The notes: generated from the sequence alone by a model not told the origin. A DNA stretch of 51,874 bases from Patescibacteria group bacterium (GCA_038078615.1 JBBTWT010000019.1:1-51874), one strand, 5' to 3'. Counted from the first letter of the stretch, positions 4,439-39,646 are shown. Translations and numbers: made by a program.

Positions 4439-6301
4439 TTATTGTCCGGCATCGAACTCTTGTTTCGCCTGTTCGATCTCGAGCAGCTGGCGCGGATCGG
4501 ACGTGATGATCTGATCTTCGCTGTAGGAAGCGACCACCTTGATGGCCGCGTGCTTGGATCCGGCGAAGAAGATGCCCTCGCCCACGTTGCTCTCGAGCAG
4601 GAGGAATTTCTCGTGATCCGTGAGATAGAACGTCTCCGCCACCAGATCGATCGAGGACGCGGACTGGCGGAGCAGAAGCTGCATCGAGGAGTTCGTGATG
4701 ATCGGTTTGCCGTAGCGCGAAGCGGCGAAATCTCCGATATCCTGCGTGATGGTCGTCAATCCCGTATAGTATTTGCGGCAGCGTTTGGCGATGCCGAAGA
4801 GAAACGACGCCGCATCCTCATTCTGCATCATCACCCAGGCCTCGTCCACCACGATGATGCGCTTCTTCATATGCGAACGGATTTCGTTCCAGATGAACTG
4901 GAGGATGATATACATAGCGATGGGACGGAGCTCTTCTTCCAGATCGCGGATATTGAACACGACGAGCTGATTCTGCATTTCCACATTGGTCTGCTTGTTG
5001 AGAAAACCGCCGAAAATCCCCTCCGTATAGCGCTCGAGGCGCGCCGCGAGCGACTCGGCACCCTCCATATTCTGCAGTACGGCATAGAGATCGGACATCG
5101 TCGGAAATGAAGACGCGGTAAAAACGGAAAAATCGCTTGTCTCCTGAATATCGCGGATAGCGTAGGATTCGCGGATAGCCCGCTCGAGAACCGCGTCTTC
5201 TTCCGGCGTGACGGAGCCGAGCATCAGGTGCAGAAGCCCGATCAGGTTCGCTACCGTATTGCGAAATACGCCGACACTATCCTCGTCGCTGACTTTTTTC
5301 GGCAGATCGAACGGATTGAGATGGACGTTGGAGTTGAGCGATACCTTGAGAAACGTCCCGCCGACGGCCTCGCACAGATGCTTGTATTCGTTTTCCGGAT
5401 CGATGATGATGACGCTCGCTCCGAACATCATCGAGCGGAGCACTTCGAGCTTCACCGTGTAGCTTTTGCCGGCGCCGGACTTGGCGAAGACGACCATATT
5501 GGCATTCTCCATCTTGAAACGGTCGAAAAGCACCAGACTGTTGTTGTGGCGGTTGATGCCGTAGAGGATGCCCTCATTCGAGGAAAGGTCCGAGGAAACG
5601 AAAGGAAATGTCGTCGAGAGCGGTTCCGTATTCAGGTTGTTCGCCACGTCCAAAGTATCGGTTCCGAGCGGGCGCGTCGACGCGAACCCCTGATCCATAC
5701 GCATCACCGACGGCTTGACATAGACGAGCTGGGCTTCGAGGGCTCCTTCCACCGCCTGACATTTCTGGCTCAAGTCTTTCTCGTTCTCCCCATAGAAGGT
5801 TATATACAGACCGAAGCGGAAAAATTTTTCCGTCCCCTGCTGCAGCTTGCTGCGCAAATTCTCGATGTCTTCGAGGGCGGTATCCAATACCGGATCTCTG
5901 ACCTGCCCGCCTTCCGCCTCGATATGGATCTGCGACTGCACCTGCGACGATGCCTTGCGCAGATTCTTCAGTATTTCCGCCGTCTCGATCGGATGTATGA
6001 ACAGAGCTATGTCCATCGAAAAATCGGTATTGATGATAGGCGAGAGCCAATTCGTAGAAAGGTAGCGCGGATAAGCGATGACGAAATACGTGCGCGTCAG
6101 CACCTCTCCGATCTGCATCGTGTTGGGACTGAGCTTGATCGCGGGCGGCGCGATGAGGTCGCGGATGGTCGCGATGCCCTTCTGATACAAGAGATCGCTC
6201 GCGCTCGGCTTGGCGCGGCCGAACACCGGCAAGAAGCTTTTCTTTTCCGTGGCAGCCGATTTTTTCGTGTTGGCGTCTTCGAAAATGATTCCTGGGAGCA
6301 T
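4439..6301 (-). CDS. virB4: VirB4-like type IV secretion ATPase
   Basis: Walker A AKSGAGKS, IIIDPENEY, Walker B IVVDEAW, RKYYTGLTTITQ; downstream of a PrgI gene. Confidence 0.88.
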   Translation of the reverse strand: MLPGIIFEDANTKKSAATEKKSFLPVFGRAKPSASDLLYQKGIATIRDLIAPPAIKLSPNTMQIGEVLTRTYFVIAYPRYLSTNWLSPIINTDFSMDIALFIHPIETAEILKNLRKASSQVQSQIHIEAEGGQVRDPVLDTALEDIENLRSKLQQGTEKFFRFGLYITFYGENEKDLSQKCQAVEGALEAQLVYVKPSVMRMDQGFASTRPLGTDTLDVANNLNTEPLSTTFPFVSSDLSSNEGILYGINRHNNSLVLFDRFKMENANMVVFAKSGAGKSYTVKLEVLRSMMFGASVIIIDPENEYKHLCEAVGGTFLKVSLNSNVHLNPFDLPKKVSDEDSVGVFRNTVANLIGLLHLMLGSVTPEEDAVLERAIRESYAIRDIQETSDFSVFTASSFPTMSDLYAVLQNMEGAESLAARLERYTEGIFGGFLNKQTNVEMQNQLVVFNIRDLEEELRPIAMYIILQFIWNEIRSHMKKRIIVVDEAWVMMQNEDAASFLFGIAKRCRKYYTGLTTITQDIGDFAASRYGKPIITNSSMQLLLRQSASSIDLVAETFYLTDHEKFLLLESNVGEGIFFAGSKHAAIKVVASYSEDQIITSDPRQLLEIEQAKQEFDAGQ

Positions 6302-14546: not shown

Positions 14547-14664
14547 TGAGTGAGTACGAATAGGAACCCTCGCCTTTCGATCGATATACCCCCTGAGAAC
14601 GGCATCCTGCGGCAAGCCGAGGAAAAGCGCCCATCGGGAATCTATCCTAATTTTTACAGAATCC

Positions 14665-35734: not shown

Positions 35735-36802
35735 TTATCTATCTCTACCATCAGGGAGGTAGTTGGTTTCAATGTTCTTGCGCAATGTATAAGCATTGCC
35801 ATGCTTCATCAGGCCAAGATATGACCGCACGGTTTCCCGCTTGCCTTCCTTTTCGCGGATATTGCGGAAGGCTCTGTTTTTGGTAACGGTGCGTAGCACT
35901 CGATGGTCTGGGAAGTGCGTCCATCCAAGAAAGTCCACGCCGGAAGCCACTGTTTTGATGAACACCTTATCCGGATGAAGTTTGAGACCAAGACGAAACT
36001 CAAGAAAGGCGCTTATCTGTACAAGAATTGTTTTCAGTTGTTCCTTATTATCCGAAAAAATCACAAAATCATCAGCATAGCGGATATAGTATTTTGCCTT
36101 TGTCTGATGTTTCATAAACTGGTCGAACTCGTTCATATAGACGTTGACCAGAAGCTGACTTGTAAGGTTGCCAAGTGGCAAGCCTTTGCCTTTCTCTGTA
36201 TGAAAGCTCCCAATGATCTCTGAAAGAAGACCGAGAATATCCTGGTCAGAGATATGCTTTTCGAGAATCCTTAGCAGAATGTTCTGGTCGATAGAAGCAA
36301 AGAACTTCCTCACATCGCATTTGAGCGCCCACGCAGTCCTGGTGTGGTTATGGGAAGCCTTATGAGCAAAGCTGCGGAAGCGGTCGAGTGCCTTGTGGAC
36401 TCCTTTGTCATTGCGGCAGGAATAAGAGTCAGCAATAAACAATCGGTCAAAGAAAGGGTAGAGGACGCGGTAGATGGCTCGATGAACTACTCTGTCTCTT
36501 ACCCGTGCCTTATGGATATTCCTTGGCTTTGGGTCGGAGATATTGAAAGCCTCATAGTTAGAATGACGATAGGTTTTGAGAGTAAGTTCTCGATGGATCG
36601 CAAAAATGTTATCTGCGAGATGCAGTTCAAACTCTTCCACATCTTTACGCTTGCGCTTCCCTCGGATAAACTCTGTCCAGGCCTCAAGGAGATTTTCGAG
36701 AGAAATGATATGATGATAATTGTCCGATAATTTTACTTTTTCCTTATGCTTTCTTTTAACAGCCCCCCCCCCCGCAGTTCTCCCCTTGTTGCAAAGGCTC
36801 AA
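35735..36802 (-). CDS. DGR reverse transcriptase (start uncertain)
   Basis: PKPRNI, RDRVVH, KCDVRKFFASI, GLPLGNLTSQ (DGR-type SQ), RYADDF, GVDFLG. Confidence 0.95.
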   Translation of the reverse strand: MSLCNKGRTAGGGAVKRKHKEKVKLSDNYHHIISLENLLEAWTEFIRGKRKRKDVEEFELHLADNIFAIHRELTLKTYRHSNYEAFNISDPKPRNIHKARVRDRVVHRAIYRVLYPFFDRLFIADSYSCRNDKGVHKALDRFRSFAHKASHNHTRTAWALKCDVRKFFASIDQNILLRILEKHISDQDILGLLSEIIGSFHTEKGKGLPLGNLTSQLLVNVYMNEFDQFMKHQTKAKYYIRYADDFVIFSDNKEQLKTILVQISAFLEFRLGLKLHPDKVFIKTVASGVDFLGWTHFPDHRVLRTVTKNRAFRNIREKEGKRETVRSYLGLMKHGNAYTLRKNIETNYLPDGRDR

Positions 36803-37124
36803 GGCTGCCTATCAATTGTGGCACAGCGCGGTTGCACATATTCCAAAGCTTCATCGTTACACATTCGGAGGGAAGATAGATAAACTCTTTCTTGAGATAT
36901 TAGAAATCATTTTCCGGGCGCAATATGCCAAGCCGGAGCAGAAACTCCAATACCTCATTGCCGGGAGCGGCAAAATTGACCTTCTCAAATTCTTTCTGCA
37001 AATCGGCTGGGAAAGTAAGCTCGTAGATAACAAAAAATACCTCGCGCTTTCTACTGAACTTCAGGCAATTGGACGGATGCTTGGTGGGTGGAAAAAAGGT
37101 TTGGAAACAAAACTCTCGCCCTAA
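36720..37124 (+). CDS. avd: Avd-like four-helix-bundle accessory protein (start uncertain)
   Basis: PKLHRYTFGGKI...IDLLKFFLQI...IGRMLGGW; located between RT and TR. Confidence 0.85.
   Translation: MSDNFTFSLCFLLTAPPPAVLPLLQRLKAAYQLWHSAVAHIPKLHRYTFGGKIDKLFLEILEIIFRAQYAKPEQKLQYLIAGSGKIDLLKFFLQIGWESKLVDNKKYLALSTELQAIGRMLGGWKKGLETKLSP
36763..36773. repeat. C11/G11 homopolymer tract in the RT/avd overlap
   Basis: agCCCCCCCCCCCgc read directly. Confidence 0.9.
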
Positions 37125-37147
37125 AGACGAGAGAAACTTTACGCGTG

Positions 37148-37263
37148 GCCGGGGCAGAGAACCTGGTTGTCAGCATTCCAGTTGCCATTCTCGTCGAGCC
37201 TCCAGTCGTTGACGTTCCACTTGCGGTTGTCGGAGTTCCAGTTGACATTCACGGCGAAGACTT
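37148..37263 (-). repeat. DGR template repeat (TR)
   Basis: 116 bp; 10 AAY codons in the target frame; differs from the VR only at adenines. Confidence 0.96.
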
Positions 37264-37511
37264 TGTGCCTTGAACCATCCATTCCACCACCCTTTGAGTG
37301 GACTACTCACTCCTCTCAGGGTTGTATCGTATGCGGGACATAGAAGTCCACCAGTTCAAGACACCAACGCATTATATTTTTTTGAAAATAAAATGGCACT
37401 CTAGTTGAAGAAAGTTCCGCAACTACTCTGGCACATTTCATTTCCAGTATCCTGACCTTTCAGCCGTAGCCGAAAGAAATTTCCAACATACCTCTTTCAT
37501 TGTATCAAAAC

Positions 37512-37553
37512 AAAAAGACCCCGGGAAGCTGCGGATGCAGTTTCCAAGGGTCT
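37512..37553 (-). terminator. Hairpin plus T-run downstream of the DGR target gene
   Basis: GACCCTTGGAAACTGC-ATCC-GCAGCTTCCCGGGGTC-TTTTT. Confidence 0.7.
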
Positions 37554-37598
37554 AAGAGACTAAGTGTCCAAGGGTCTTTTGCCTAAGTGGCGAAAGGG

Positions 37599-38255
37599 TC
37601 AGAGTGCCGCGTTGCCGGGGCAGAGAACCTGGCAGTCAGCACCCCAGCAGCCACACTCGTCGAGCCTCCAGACGAAGACGAGCCACCAGCGGTTGCCGGA
37701 GTCCCAGAGGACACGCACGGCGAAGACTTCACCGCCCACACCTTCCAGGTAGAAGAGGTAGTAGCCTTCTTTGCCGTTCGGGTACATCTCGATCAGGCTG
37801 GCGATGTCTTCCCAGTTGCCGAGGTGGCGCTTAGGAAGGTCCGGACGAACTTCACGGTCGTAGGCGTTCTTCTTGAGACGTCCGATTCCGTAGGTCCGCC
37901 TGGGTGTGCTTGCCACCGGCTTGAGTACCGGCAGGATGCGCTCCCGGAAGGAACCATACAGGTATATGCCCGAACGGCTGAAGAATTCGTTCGGGTCGAT
38001 CGGTTTGTCCCGGGCCGGAAAGGTGATCGGGTCTTCCGGCTTCAGGATACTAGTTTCCCGGAGTATCTGAACACCTTGCACACTTTCAAATTTCAATCCC
38101 TTGATCATCCTTTCCAGATGCGGACGGCCCTTCGCCGTCGCGAGGACGTGAAATTCCTCCTCGCTCACGCCATGCGCGCGACGGATCTCGTCCATCGTAG
38201 CGCCGATCTGCATGGCGAAGCCAAACCCTGAAACCACCTGCGACTTCTTGCTCAT
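37599..38255 (-). CDS. DGR target (variable) protein, 218 aa
   Basis: GAGGAG RBS and ATG 38255; VR encodes the C-terminal ~38 codons. Confidence 0.9.
   Translation of the reverse strand: MSKKSQVVSGFGFAMQIGATMDEIRRAHGVSEEEFHVLATAKGRPHLERMIKGLKFESVQGVQILRETSILKPEDPITFPARDKPIDPNEFFSRSGIYLYGSFRERILPVLKPVASTPRRTYGIGRLKKNAYDREVRPDLPKRHLGNWEDIASLIEMYPNGKEGYYLFYLEGVGGEVFAVRVLWDSGNRWWLVFVWRLDECGCWGADCQVLCPGNAAL
37614..37729 (-). repeat. DGR variable repeat (VR)
   Basis: 95/116 identical to TR; all 21 mismatches fall at TR adenines. Confidence 0.96.
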
Positions 38256-38394
38256 TACTATTCTCCTCGATCCACTCCTCACGGCCCCACATATGCAGAG
38301 TCGCCCCAAATGGATCATCAAGGAACACACTCCCTTTTTCGCTCGGGAGCTTGGCGGTTTTTGCGTTTGCTGAAGCAGCATCGAAAAACATTGA

Positions 38395-38423
38395 AGTGTA
38401 GCATTTTTTGGCTTTTTTGTCCA
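38395..38423 (-). promoter_or_regulatory. Promoter candidate for the DGR target gene
   Basis: TGGACA-17-TACACT with extended TG. Confidence 0.5.
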
Positions 38424-38452
38424 GCCCGCTGAACTGGCTGGCACAGCGTGTC

Positions 38453-39646
38453 TCAAGCGCCATTTTCTCCCGGATCAATCCACTTGCCGTCTGACTTGAT
38501 CAGGGCGATGAGCTCCTCTACCGCTTCTTGTTCCGGCACCGCGCGCTTCACGAGTACCTTTTTCCGGTACAAACTGACTTGTCCGTGCGCTCCGCCGACA
38601 TACCCGTAGTCCGCGTCCGCCATCTCGCCAAGTCCGTTCACGATACAGCCCATGATCGCGATGTGCAGTCCTTTCAGATGACCCATGCGTTCCTTGATGG
38701 TGTTGGTCACCGGCTCGATATCGAACAGCGTCCGCCCGCACGACGGACAGGAAATGAATTCCGTCCGTGTGATACGCCGATGTGTTGCCTGCAGTATGCC
38801 ATAGCATGTCGGGATTTCCTTGGCGGGATCTTCCGTCAGTGAAACGCGAATGGTATCACCGATGCCCTCCAGAAGGAGCGTCCCGATACCGAGCGTTGAT
38901 TTCGCGCGACCCTCTTCGCCGTTGCCTGCCTCCGTCACGCCGAGATGGATCGGGTAGTCCATCCCCTCCTTGTCCATCGTCGCGATGAGCAGCCGGTTGG
39001 ATTCGATCATGACGAGGGGATTCGATGCCTTCAGAGCGACCACGATATCGTTGAACCCGTGTTTTCGAAAAATCCGCAGATACTCCATCGTCGACTCCAC
39101 CATCCCGAGCGGCGTATCGCCGAAACGTGACAGCACCCGGTCGGAGAGCGACCCGTGGTTACACCCGATACGGATGGCTTTTCCTGATTGTTTCAGGGCC
39201 TCTATGAACGGCAGGAGGCTTTCTTCTATCCGCTCTATCTCCTTGGCATAACTCGCGTCGTCGAATGCCAACGTACGAAATATCTTTCCATCGAGAAAAT
39301 TTCCTGGGTTGAGACGGATCTTGTCCGCCCATTTCAGCGCCTCGAACGCCGCGGCCGGCAGAAAATGGATATCGGCAATGAGGGGAATGTTGATACCAGA
39401 CTTGAGGAGCATTTCCCGAATCGGCCCAAGCGCCTGCGCGTGCCGCGGCGTCGGTGTCGTCAGACGAATCAGCTCCGTCCCGGCCTTCACGCAAGCCATA
39501 ATCTGCGCGACCGTCGCCTGCAGATCGAGCGTGTCGGTATTCGTCATTGTCTGTACACGAATCTGGTTGTCTCCACCGATCGGGACACCACCGACATTCA
39601 CGACGCGTGTTTTTCTGCGTGGCTTCAGTGCCGCAAAAGAATCCAT
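38453..39646 (-). CDS. ispG: 4-hydroxy-3-methylbut-2-en-1-yl diphosphate synthase
   Basis: PLIADIHF, RLNPGN, NHGSL, HLGVTEAG, GDTIRVSLT, CPSCGR, MGCIVNG. Confidence 0.95.
   Translation of the reverse strand: MDSFAALKPRRKTRVVNVGGVPIGGDNQIRVQTMTNTDTLDLQATVAQIMACVKAGTELIRLTTPTPRHAQALGPIREMLLKSGINIPLIADIHFLPAAAFEALKWADKIRLNPGNFLDGKIFRTLAFDDASYAKEIERIEESLLPFIEALKQSGKAIRIGCNHGSLSDRVLSRFGDTPLGMVESTMEYLRIFRKHGFNDIVVALKASNPLVMIESNRLLIATMDKEGMDYPIHLGVTEAGNGEEGRAKSTLGIGTLLLEGIGDTIRVSLTEDPAKEIPTCYGILQATHRRITRTEFISCPSCGRTLFDIEPVTNTIKERMGHLKGLHIAIMGCIVNGLGEMADADYGYVGGAHGQVSLYRKKVLVKRAVPEQEAVEELIALIKSDGKWIDPGENGA

Follow-up and report, generated by a model that had tools for sequence, protein, structure and literature searches.

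A conserved slippage-prone repeat at the avd/RT junction of Patescibacteria diversity-generating retroelements as a candidate frame switch for targeted hypermutation

To our knowledge, diversity-generating retroelements (DGRs) are the only natural system of targeted protein hypermutation known in prokaryotes, and the control of their firing is largely unknown. Here, we analysed a stretch of 51,874 nucleotides (nt) from a Patescibacteria group bacterium, an ultra-small groundwater bacterium (GCA_038078615.1 JBBTWT010000019.1; the whole stretch is called the window below), which carries a DGR whose avd gene and reverse transcriptase (RT) gene are divergent and overlap at their 5′ ends. We found that the overlap contains a homopolymer of eleven bases, C11 on the plus strand and G11 on the minus strand (36763–36773), and that this tract is the window's copy of a simple-sequence repeat kept at the avd/RT junction of related DGRs of the Candidate Phyla Radiation (CPR). 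From comparative sequence evidence we propose, with slightly better than even confidence, that the tract may act as a heritable switch of reading frame within the 5′ part of avd and, for the clade of the window, of RT as well, with ATG, TTG and null states.

The tract is flanked by a G on either side (36762 and 36774), and its position in the overlap of the two divergent genes, claimed in an earlier note made from the sequence alone (the sequence-only reading), was borne out by the sequence and by the list of open reading frames (ORFs). The likely true avd start is an ATG at 36746–36748 (+), 17 nt 5′ of the tract. As assembled, this ATG opens a short ORF (36746–36883, +) of 45 amino acids (aa) that is not in the Avd frame, and the avd ORF itself (36720–37124, +; 134 aa) begins with a TTG; two further TTG codons, at 36786 and 36789, share the Avd frame and could serve as downstream starts. 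On the minus strand, the RT ORF as assembled (35735–36802, −; 355 aa) starts with a TTG at 36802 and translates the tract as Gly-Gly-Gly, and no in-frame ATG, GTG or TTG lies between the tract and the conserved IIS..ENLL motif. Upstream of it on the RT strand, a further ORF with ATGs at 36854 and 36839 (36756–36854, −) stops at a TAA (36758–36756) when the tract has eleven bases. This upstream ORF runs antisense to the Avd N-terminus with its codons aligned, and in the database proteins P0025, P0023 and P0011 it is fused to RT. The sequence-only reading had stated that with eleven bases the avd ATG at 36746 is off frame and the RT-side ATGs run into the TAA, and the ORF list and the minus-strand read agree; it was equally right that only TTG starts (avd 36720 or 36786; RT 36802) are then in frame.

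Frame states were computed with a script in which the tract was reset to n = 9 to 13 and the ORFs were re-read. At n = 10 or 13, the frame of the avd ATG matches that of the Avd body and gives an ORF of 125 or 126 aa, and the upstream ORF on the RT strand fuses to the RT body, giving RT ORFs of 372–373 and 367–368 aa from the two ATGs. At n = 11, the present state, the avd ATG and the Avd body are in different frames, and full length is reached from the TTG ORFs only (134 aa for avd and 355 aa for RT). At n = 9 or 12, neither avd nor RT has a full-length ORF. The rebuild thus reproduced the earlier claim that ten or thirteen bases bring both genes into frame at once, but this outcome is largely forced by antisense codon geometry. 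Opposite the avd ATG of the window, the RT frame has a His codon, and opposite the RT-side ATGs, the Avd frame has His codons that belong to the conserved HIPKLH stretch. Because the ATGs thus lie antisense to in-frame His codons of the other gene, codon boundaries are aligned on both sides of the tract, and therefore any n that restores the avd frame must also restore the frame of that RT ORF. As to the suggestion that the tract could turn the genes "on or off", the dependence of frame on n stood, while a clean OFF at n = 11 did not, since both genes are full length from TTG. No inverted repeats were found in 36600–36950, so no hairpin was seen at the tract.

To place the tract among its relatives, we used a family set of 161 loci, namely 80 from one-genome-per-species contigs, 80 from metagenome contigs and the window, and scored a tract wherever a run of at least seven G occurred within 130 nt upstream of the RT body. 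Seven loci had too little upstream sequence, their contigs starting within 60 nt of the expected tract, which left 154 informative loci. A G/C run of 7–16 bases was present at the avd/RT junction in 133 of these 154 (133/161 overall), most often with nine (42 loci), ten (41) or eleven bases (20); the remaining lengths were seven (6 loci), eight (13), twelve (5), thirteen (4), fourteen (1) and sixteen (1). In twelve of the 21 informative loci without such a run, another kind of simple repeat takes its place: (TTGG)10, (CTGG)10, (CTGG)9, (TTCG)9, a heptamer in 11 and in at least 8 copies, (CT)6, (CT)7, (CT)9, (GT)8, (GT)10, and a poly-C with Ns. The other nine comprise four with a short or decayed G run, one with a weak (GT)4 and four with nothing. 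None of the replacement units is a multiple of three in length, and their copy number varies among related loci. A repeat of some kind therefore occupies the junction in 145/154 informative loci, at RT identities down to about 58%, suggesting that the conserved trait is repetitiveness and not one particular sequence. The sequence-only reading had named a comparison of homologous CPR DGR loci as a check, and its outcome, a poly-G/C of 7–16 kept at the junction with other repeats in 12 loci, agrees with that reading. Tetra- and heptanucleotide repeats of 36–77 nt replace the poly-G in an RT subclade whose RT begins with MPKI.F (L043, L066, L103, L069, L075 and L149), and the motif differs by member (TTGG, CTGG, TTCG and TGATTGC).

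The avd side of the junction was compared with the Avd hidden Markov model as anchor, and an upstream start was scored as an in-frame ATG with a stop-free path, upstream of the Avd body. In 117/133 tract-bearing loci, an ORF of at least 90 codons on the avd strand starts 0–2 nt after the tract, with at most two or three codons between that point and the conserved Avd N-terminus. An upstream in-frame ATG was present in all nine loci with no or a short tract, including the tract-less DGR of the same genome on contig C33, as against 44/127 poly-G loci (Fisher p = 1.3e-4), the latter being close to random phase; it was present in 6/11 loci with another repeat. Many database Avd proteins start as M-x(2-20)-PP(P)-Avd body, and others have been called from a downstream TTG or ATG. 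The clade of the window keeps an ATG 16–19 nt 5′ of the tract (L081, L082, L001, L168 and L169), with the leader MLSFNS before the tract in the window and MSSLNT, MSSSNT or MNSSLNT in relatives. From these start positions we conclude that avd normally starts upstream, the tract then probably belonging to its 5′ coding region. Assembled loci are essentially random in frame across the tract: in-frame upstream ATGs were not enriched in the tract-bearing loci, either among open ATGs (50/58/52 in the three phases) or among nearest ATGs within 26 nt (15/22/17). A conserved avd start downstream of the tract was considered and rejected, with an ATG, GTG or TTG within eight codons in only 64/113 distinct junctions; such candidates are mostly TTG, at Leu positions where other loci have TTA.

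The RT side differs between the family and the clade of the window. Across the family, RT has an in-frame ATG downstream of the tract in 101/133 tract-bearing loci, with a mode at 13 nt (37 loci), and TAnnnT directly follows the tract in 55/133, so that the RT side of the family looks like a promoter with the tract in or beside its spacer and a leaderless start, judged from motif and spacing. In the clade of the window, all six loci with DNA (the window, L001, L081, L082, L168 and L169) have no in-frame ATG, GTG or TTG from the tract to the IIS codons, and the −10-like box is degenerate. Because no canonical start follows the tract in any of the six, RT would also have to read through the tract in this clade. 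The RT database proteins of the clade join the Gly run from all three upstream frames. In L001 and L169, at an assembled C10, the avd ATG ORF and the RT ATG ORF (which starts 44 nt upstream of the tract) are both in frame; in the window and L168 at C11, as in L081 and L082 at C10, both ATG ORFs are one base off frame. The L001/L169 subclade has its ATGs at other positions, offset by one base on both sides with co-phasing kept, which, from two subclades, weakly suggests that co-phasing may be kept by selection. Of the earlier suggestion that one slippage event could switch both genes, the part that avd reads through the tract is supported; that RT does so holds for the clade of the window and fails family-wide, where the RT ATG mostly lies downstream.

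Within its own genome (G000, 759 kb), the tract is part of an excess of long runs. The number of G/C runs falls about five-fold per added base up to seven (246 of C5, 44 of C6 and 5 of C7), yet there are 14 runs of at least eight and 10 of at least nine, and long G/C tracts thus exceed the chance expectation. Four of the 14 runs of at least eight sit at avd/RT junctions of the genome's DGR copies, on contig C19 (the window), on contig C39 (a run of ten C), on contig C1 and at the end of contig C33. The genome has four DGR RT paralogues, that of the window and those on contigs C39, C1 and C33 (56%, 49% and 41% identity), plus one more avd at the end of contig C33; the paralogue loci on these three contigs include L163, L164 and L165. 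The individual junctions are varied. On contig C39 (5098–5107), the run of ten is followed by an RT ATG 17 nt downstream (G10-TATTCA-N11-ATG). On contig C1 (24135–24143), nine C are followed by a dinucleotide repeat, which on the RT strand is G9 preceded by (GA)n; the run is not followed by a canonical RT start, and an upstream ATG ORF is one base off frame. The avd at the end of contig C33 adjoins a G14 (14548–14561), and the contig ends 22 nt further. The DGR at 4956–4984 of the same contig is tract-less, with the avd and RT ATGs back to back.

We further compared the contig sets of four sequencing runs, using contigs only; RNA runs among the candidates reached at most 0.08 of the sampled words. 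The independent contig set of X1, the probable source run of the window, crosses the tract with 0 differences over 1817 nt and reproduces the C11, and the C11 of L168, from another species of the same genus (G018; 78% identity), shares its flanks and its frame state with the tract of the window. Contig ends coincide with the tract in 3/4 runs examined, a 99%-identical locus of a same-genus genome (G004) is present as two contigs split exactly at the tract, three loci have N gaps at the tract, and 7/161 loci begin within 60 nt of the tract position. One X2 contig terminates at window position 36759 with 27 loose G's, and L060 has about 50 C's plus an N gap at the junction; both are probably sequencing or assembly artefacts at the tract. 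As for change in length, tracts span 7–16 bases between species (133 loci), and two RT proteins, P0005 and P0008, share all 339 residues that follow the Gly run but enter it from different frames.

The mechanism that we favour is a heritable frame switch. A conserved, slippage-prone repeat would sit at the head-to-head avd/RT junction of the TR-(avd)-RT type of DGR, TR being the template repeat, which is typical of CPR/Patescibacteria. Lying between the ATG leader (MLSFNS) and the Avd body, it would be read as prolines in Avd and, in the clade of the window, also as glycines in RT. Slipped-strand mispairing would add or remove one base and reset the frame of both genes together. At n = 10 or 13, both proteins would be made at full length from ATG; at n = 11, full length would come from TTG only, with weak or no expression expected; and at n = 9 or 12, neither protein would be full length. 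The expected net effect is a heritable and reversible on, dim or off setting of DGR mutagenesis. The build of the junction, its conservation throughout the family, the failure of frame to be conserved from one side of the repeat to the other and the start positions in tract-less relatives are shown by the sequences; a high rate of length change in populations, weak TTG starts and expression that follows frame are what the mechanism would further require. The wider proposition is that CPR bacteria have put targeted hypermutation under a second, untargeted hypermutable element, a shared repeat that would stochastically set the DGR on, dim or off in each lineage, so that a subpopulation alone pays the cost of mutagenesis, and that would be kept with changing motifs across much of Patescibacteria; we hold it somewhat short of an even bet.

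Several observations weigh against the switch. The co-phasing of avd and RT in the window is a geometric necessity and gives no independent sign of design. Contig breaks at a G/C run of 10–11 bases are explicable by sequencing error alone. Tract length is equal in all five pairs of loci whose flanks are at least 99.8% identical, some of which may be one data set filed twice, and the window and L168 share C11 across 78% identity, so that this state may be a stable, working one and not "off". Since TTG starts give full-length ORFs of both genes at n = 11, both may still be expressed in the present state. Moreover, the random ATG phases fit a free-running switch and fit equally well a tract that is not read from those ATGs, and 59/113 distinct junctions have no ATG within 26 nt upstream of the tract.

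These points have to be set against other explanations of the tract. If both proteins started outside it, the tract could act in transcription as a spacer of variable length, belonging to the RT promoter or to a divergent control region common to both genes, its length tuning promoter geometry as in classical promoter-spacer phase variation. The wider family offers several observations that fit: the downstream RT ATG at a modal 13 nt and the TAnnnT after the tract are spaced like a leaderless start and its −10 box, the paralogous DGR on contig C39 has its G10-TATTCA-N11-ATG, and a putative spacer measured from an nTGGnA hexamer to where the tract ends has a mode of 18 with a main range of 14–23. 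Tracts also tend to be shorter the farther they lie from the Avd Pro codon (Spearman −0.39, p = 4e-4, n = 79, without correction for relatedness), and TTGACA-N7-9-G9-10-TAnnnT contexts occur 5′ of four non-DGR genes in the same genome. In the window, however, the tract is not followed by TAnnnT, a TGG(T/C)A hexamer is missing because the Pro codon is CCC, and no TTG or TGG hexamer is found at 16–19 nt; a promoter scan of 36550–37000 gave one site, downstream of the tract, against 0.7 expected, which is chance level. Nor does a transcriptional spacer account for the missing canonical RT start in the six clade loci, for the repeats of 36–77 nt in some relatives, which exceed a −35/−10 spacer, or for the avd ATG upstream of the tract position in all nine tract-less relatives. 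Such a spacer is attractive for the wider family, and its defining elements are absent from the window; as an account of the tract we consider it improbable.

A tract that is read but does not switch heritably is a comparably poor prospect in our estimate. RNA polymerase slippage or a ribosome shift would then yield a minority of in-frame messages at every DNA length, a constant throttle keeping Avd and RT scarce. The random frame of the assembled loci is what would be expected if the DNA phase were irrelevant, the equal lengths in near-identical pairs and the C11 of two species fit a stable tract, and there is a hint that the variable repeat (VR) is diverse although the consensus has the "ATG-off" length. 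Transcriptional slippage is, however, well documented on A/T runs and much less on G/C runs, which counts against this explanation; RNA slippage does not account for the tetra- and heptanucleotide repeats that replace the homopolymer in some relatives, and P0005 and P0008 differ in length at the DNA level. That the C11 is a consensus error for C10, as the sequence-only reading had cautioned, or a neutral run without function, is disfavoured and very improbable. Homopolymers this long are error-prone in short reads, and contigs do break at the tract, but the second contig set of the probable source run and another species both have C11, a repeat is kept at the junction across the family, and runs this long are far above the run-length decay of the genome.

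The proposed frame switch can be compared with known contingency systems. Tetranucleotide repeats form 5′ coding contingency loci in Haemophilus influenzae, whose divergent fimbrial genes hifA and hifB share a promoter with a (TA)n spacer, and homopolymers lie in promoter spacers at N. meningitidis porA and Bordetella fim. Like the contingency repeats of Neisseria, Campylobacter and Haemophilus, the junction repeat is a G/C run of 9–11 or a repeat of 2-, 4- or 7-nt units just after a start, one unit shifts the frame, frames vary between related loci, and runs are over-represented in the genome. Unlike at those loci, the genes that would be controlled are the two enzymes of a mutagenic retroelement and not surface or restriction-modification genes, one tract is common to two divergent overlapping ORFs, and the host is an uncultured groundwater CPR bacterium, free-living or episymbiotic. 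The arrangement also resembles hifA/hifB in that one repeat between divergent genes would set both, and in most relatives the tract adjoins a −10-like box 5′ of RT; it differs from hif, porA and fim in that the window tract lies inside ORFs without recognisable −35/−10 elements around it. Among the contingency loci described are poly-G tracts within ORFs of Neisseria meningitidis hmbR and hpuAB (PMC3786947), G/C tracts of Campylobacter (PMC8355987) and tracts of Bordetella (PMC1891110).

In layout, the window DGR is like the B3 DGRs of Wu et al. 2018 (PMC5758913); the word "homopolymer" does not occur in that paper, and the parts consulted mention no junction repeat. Among the literature matches listed for DGRs with phase variation, homopolymers, simple repeats, Avd frameshifts or CPR, and for Patescibacteria with phase variation, we found no description of a repeat at the avd/RT junction. 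If the frame switch is real, the conserved contingency repeat would be a simple layer of DGR control that is legible from sequence and would predict the mutagenic competence of populations. The frequent frameshifted or start-less look of avd and RT genes in CPR genomes, and the contig breaks found there, would then be explained as well. For annotation, gene callers assign arbitrary starts to avd and RT.

The features around the tract are those of a DGR. Avd matches Pfam bAvd (PF22296) over residues 24–127 (E = 1.4e-13; 51.7 bits against a cut-off of 40) and NCBIfam DivGenRetAVD over residues 21–126, equal to profile positions 1–104 (63.2 bits, under the cut-off of 80), so that the Avd domain starts at residue 21–24 of the assembled ORF, directly after the tract. 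RT matches RVT_1 (E = 2.2e-27), and its homologues at 58–99% identity are RTs of CPR DGR loci with adjacent TR and avd. The TR lies at 37142–37263 (−), and the target gene at 37599–38456 (−), with its VR at 37608–37729. The TR/VR pair is 122 nt long with 82% identity, and on the target-sense strand the TR has an adenine at 21 of the 22 mismatches. With RVT_1, bAvd and the TR/VR adenine pattern all present, the locus can be taken as a genuine DGR and looks functional. Its order, with target and VR, TR, and then avd on the opposite strand between TR and RT, is that of the B3 architecture, TR-(avd)-RT, which makes up 90% of the CPR set of Wu et al. 2018 (PMC5758913).

In both X1 and X2, the VR is on its own short contig (window 37604–37745) with a depth below that of the neighbouring single-copy contig (18 vs 30.5 in X1 and 10.1 vs 22.7 in X2), although the VR is present twice in the assembly. 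This lower depth is a hint that other VR variants coexist in the X1 and X2 samples and that the DGR is active. The 3′ part of the target gene recurs on contig C22 (6856–7445), where it is 96% identical over 590 nt to sequence within window 37400–38700 and has a VR identical to that of the window (0/122 differences). The C22 copy may represent a paralogous target or a recent duplication, or VR variants may have caused the assembly to duplicate the sequence. The database protein P0011 is a called protein of 503 aa that runs from translated TR across the avd antisense, continues over the Gly run and reaches RT, which shows that the RT strand can stay open from TR to RT in some relatives.

Poly-G runs of 9–10 bases in a promoter-like context (TTGACA, 7–9 nt, G run, TAnnnT) lie upstream of non-DGR genes of the same genome, on contig C2 (1234–1243), contig C27 (10740–10749), contig C21 (9189–9197) and contig C11 (68576–68584). 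Two of these genes, ORFs of 294 and 286 aa, are paralogues of each other, and Pfam gave nothing above the cut-off for either. Judged from their context, these sites may be further contingency promoters in the genome, and one of them is followed by an ORF at a contig end with a signal-peptide-like start.

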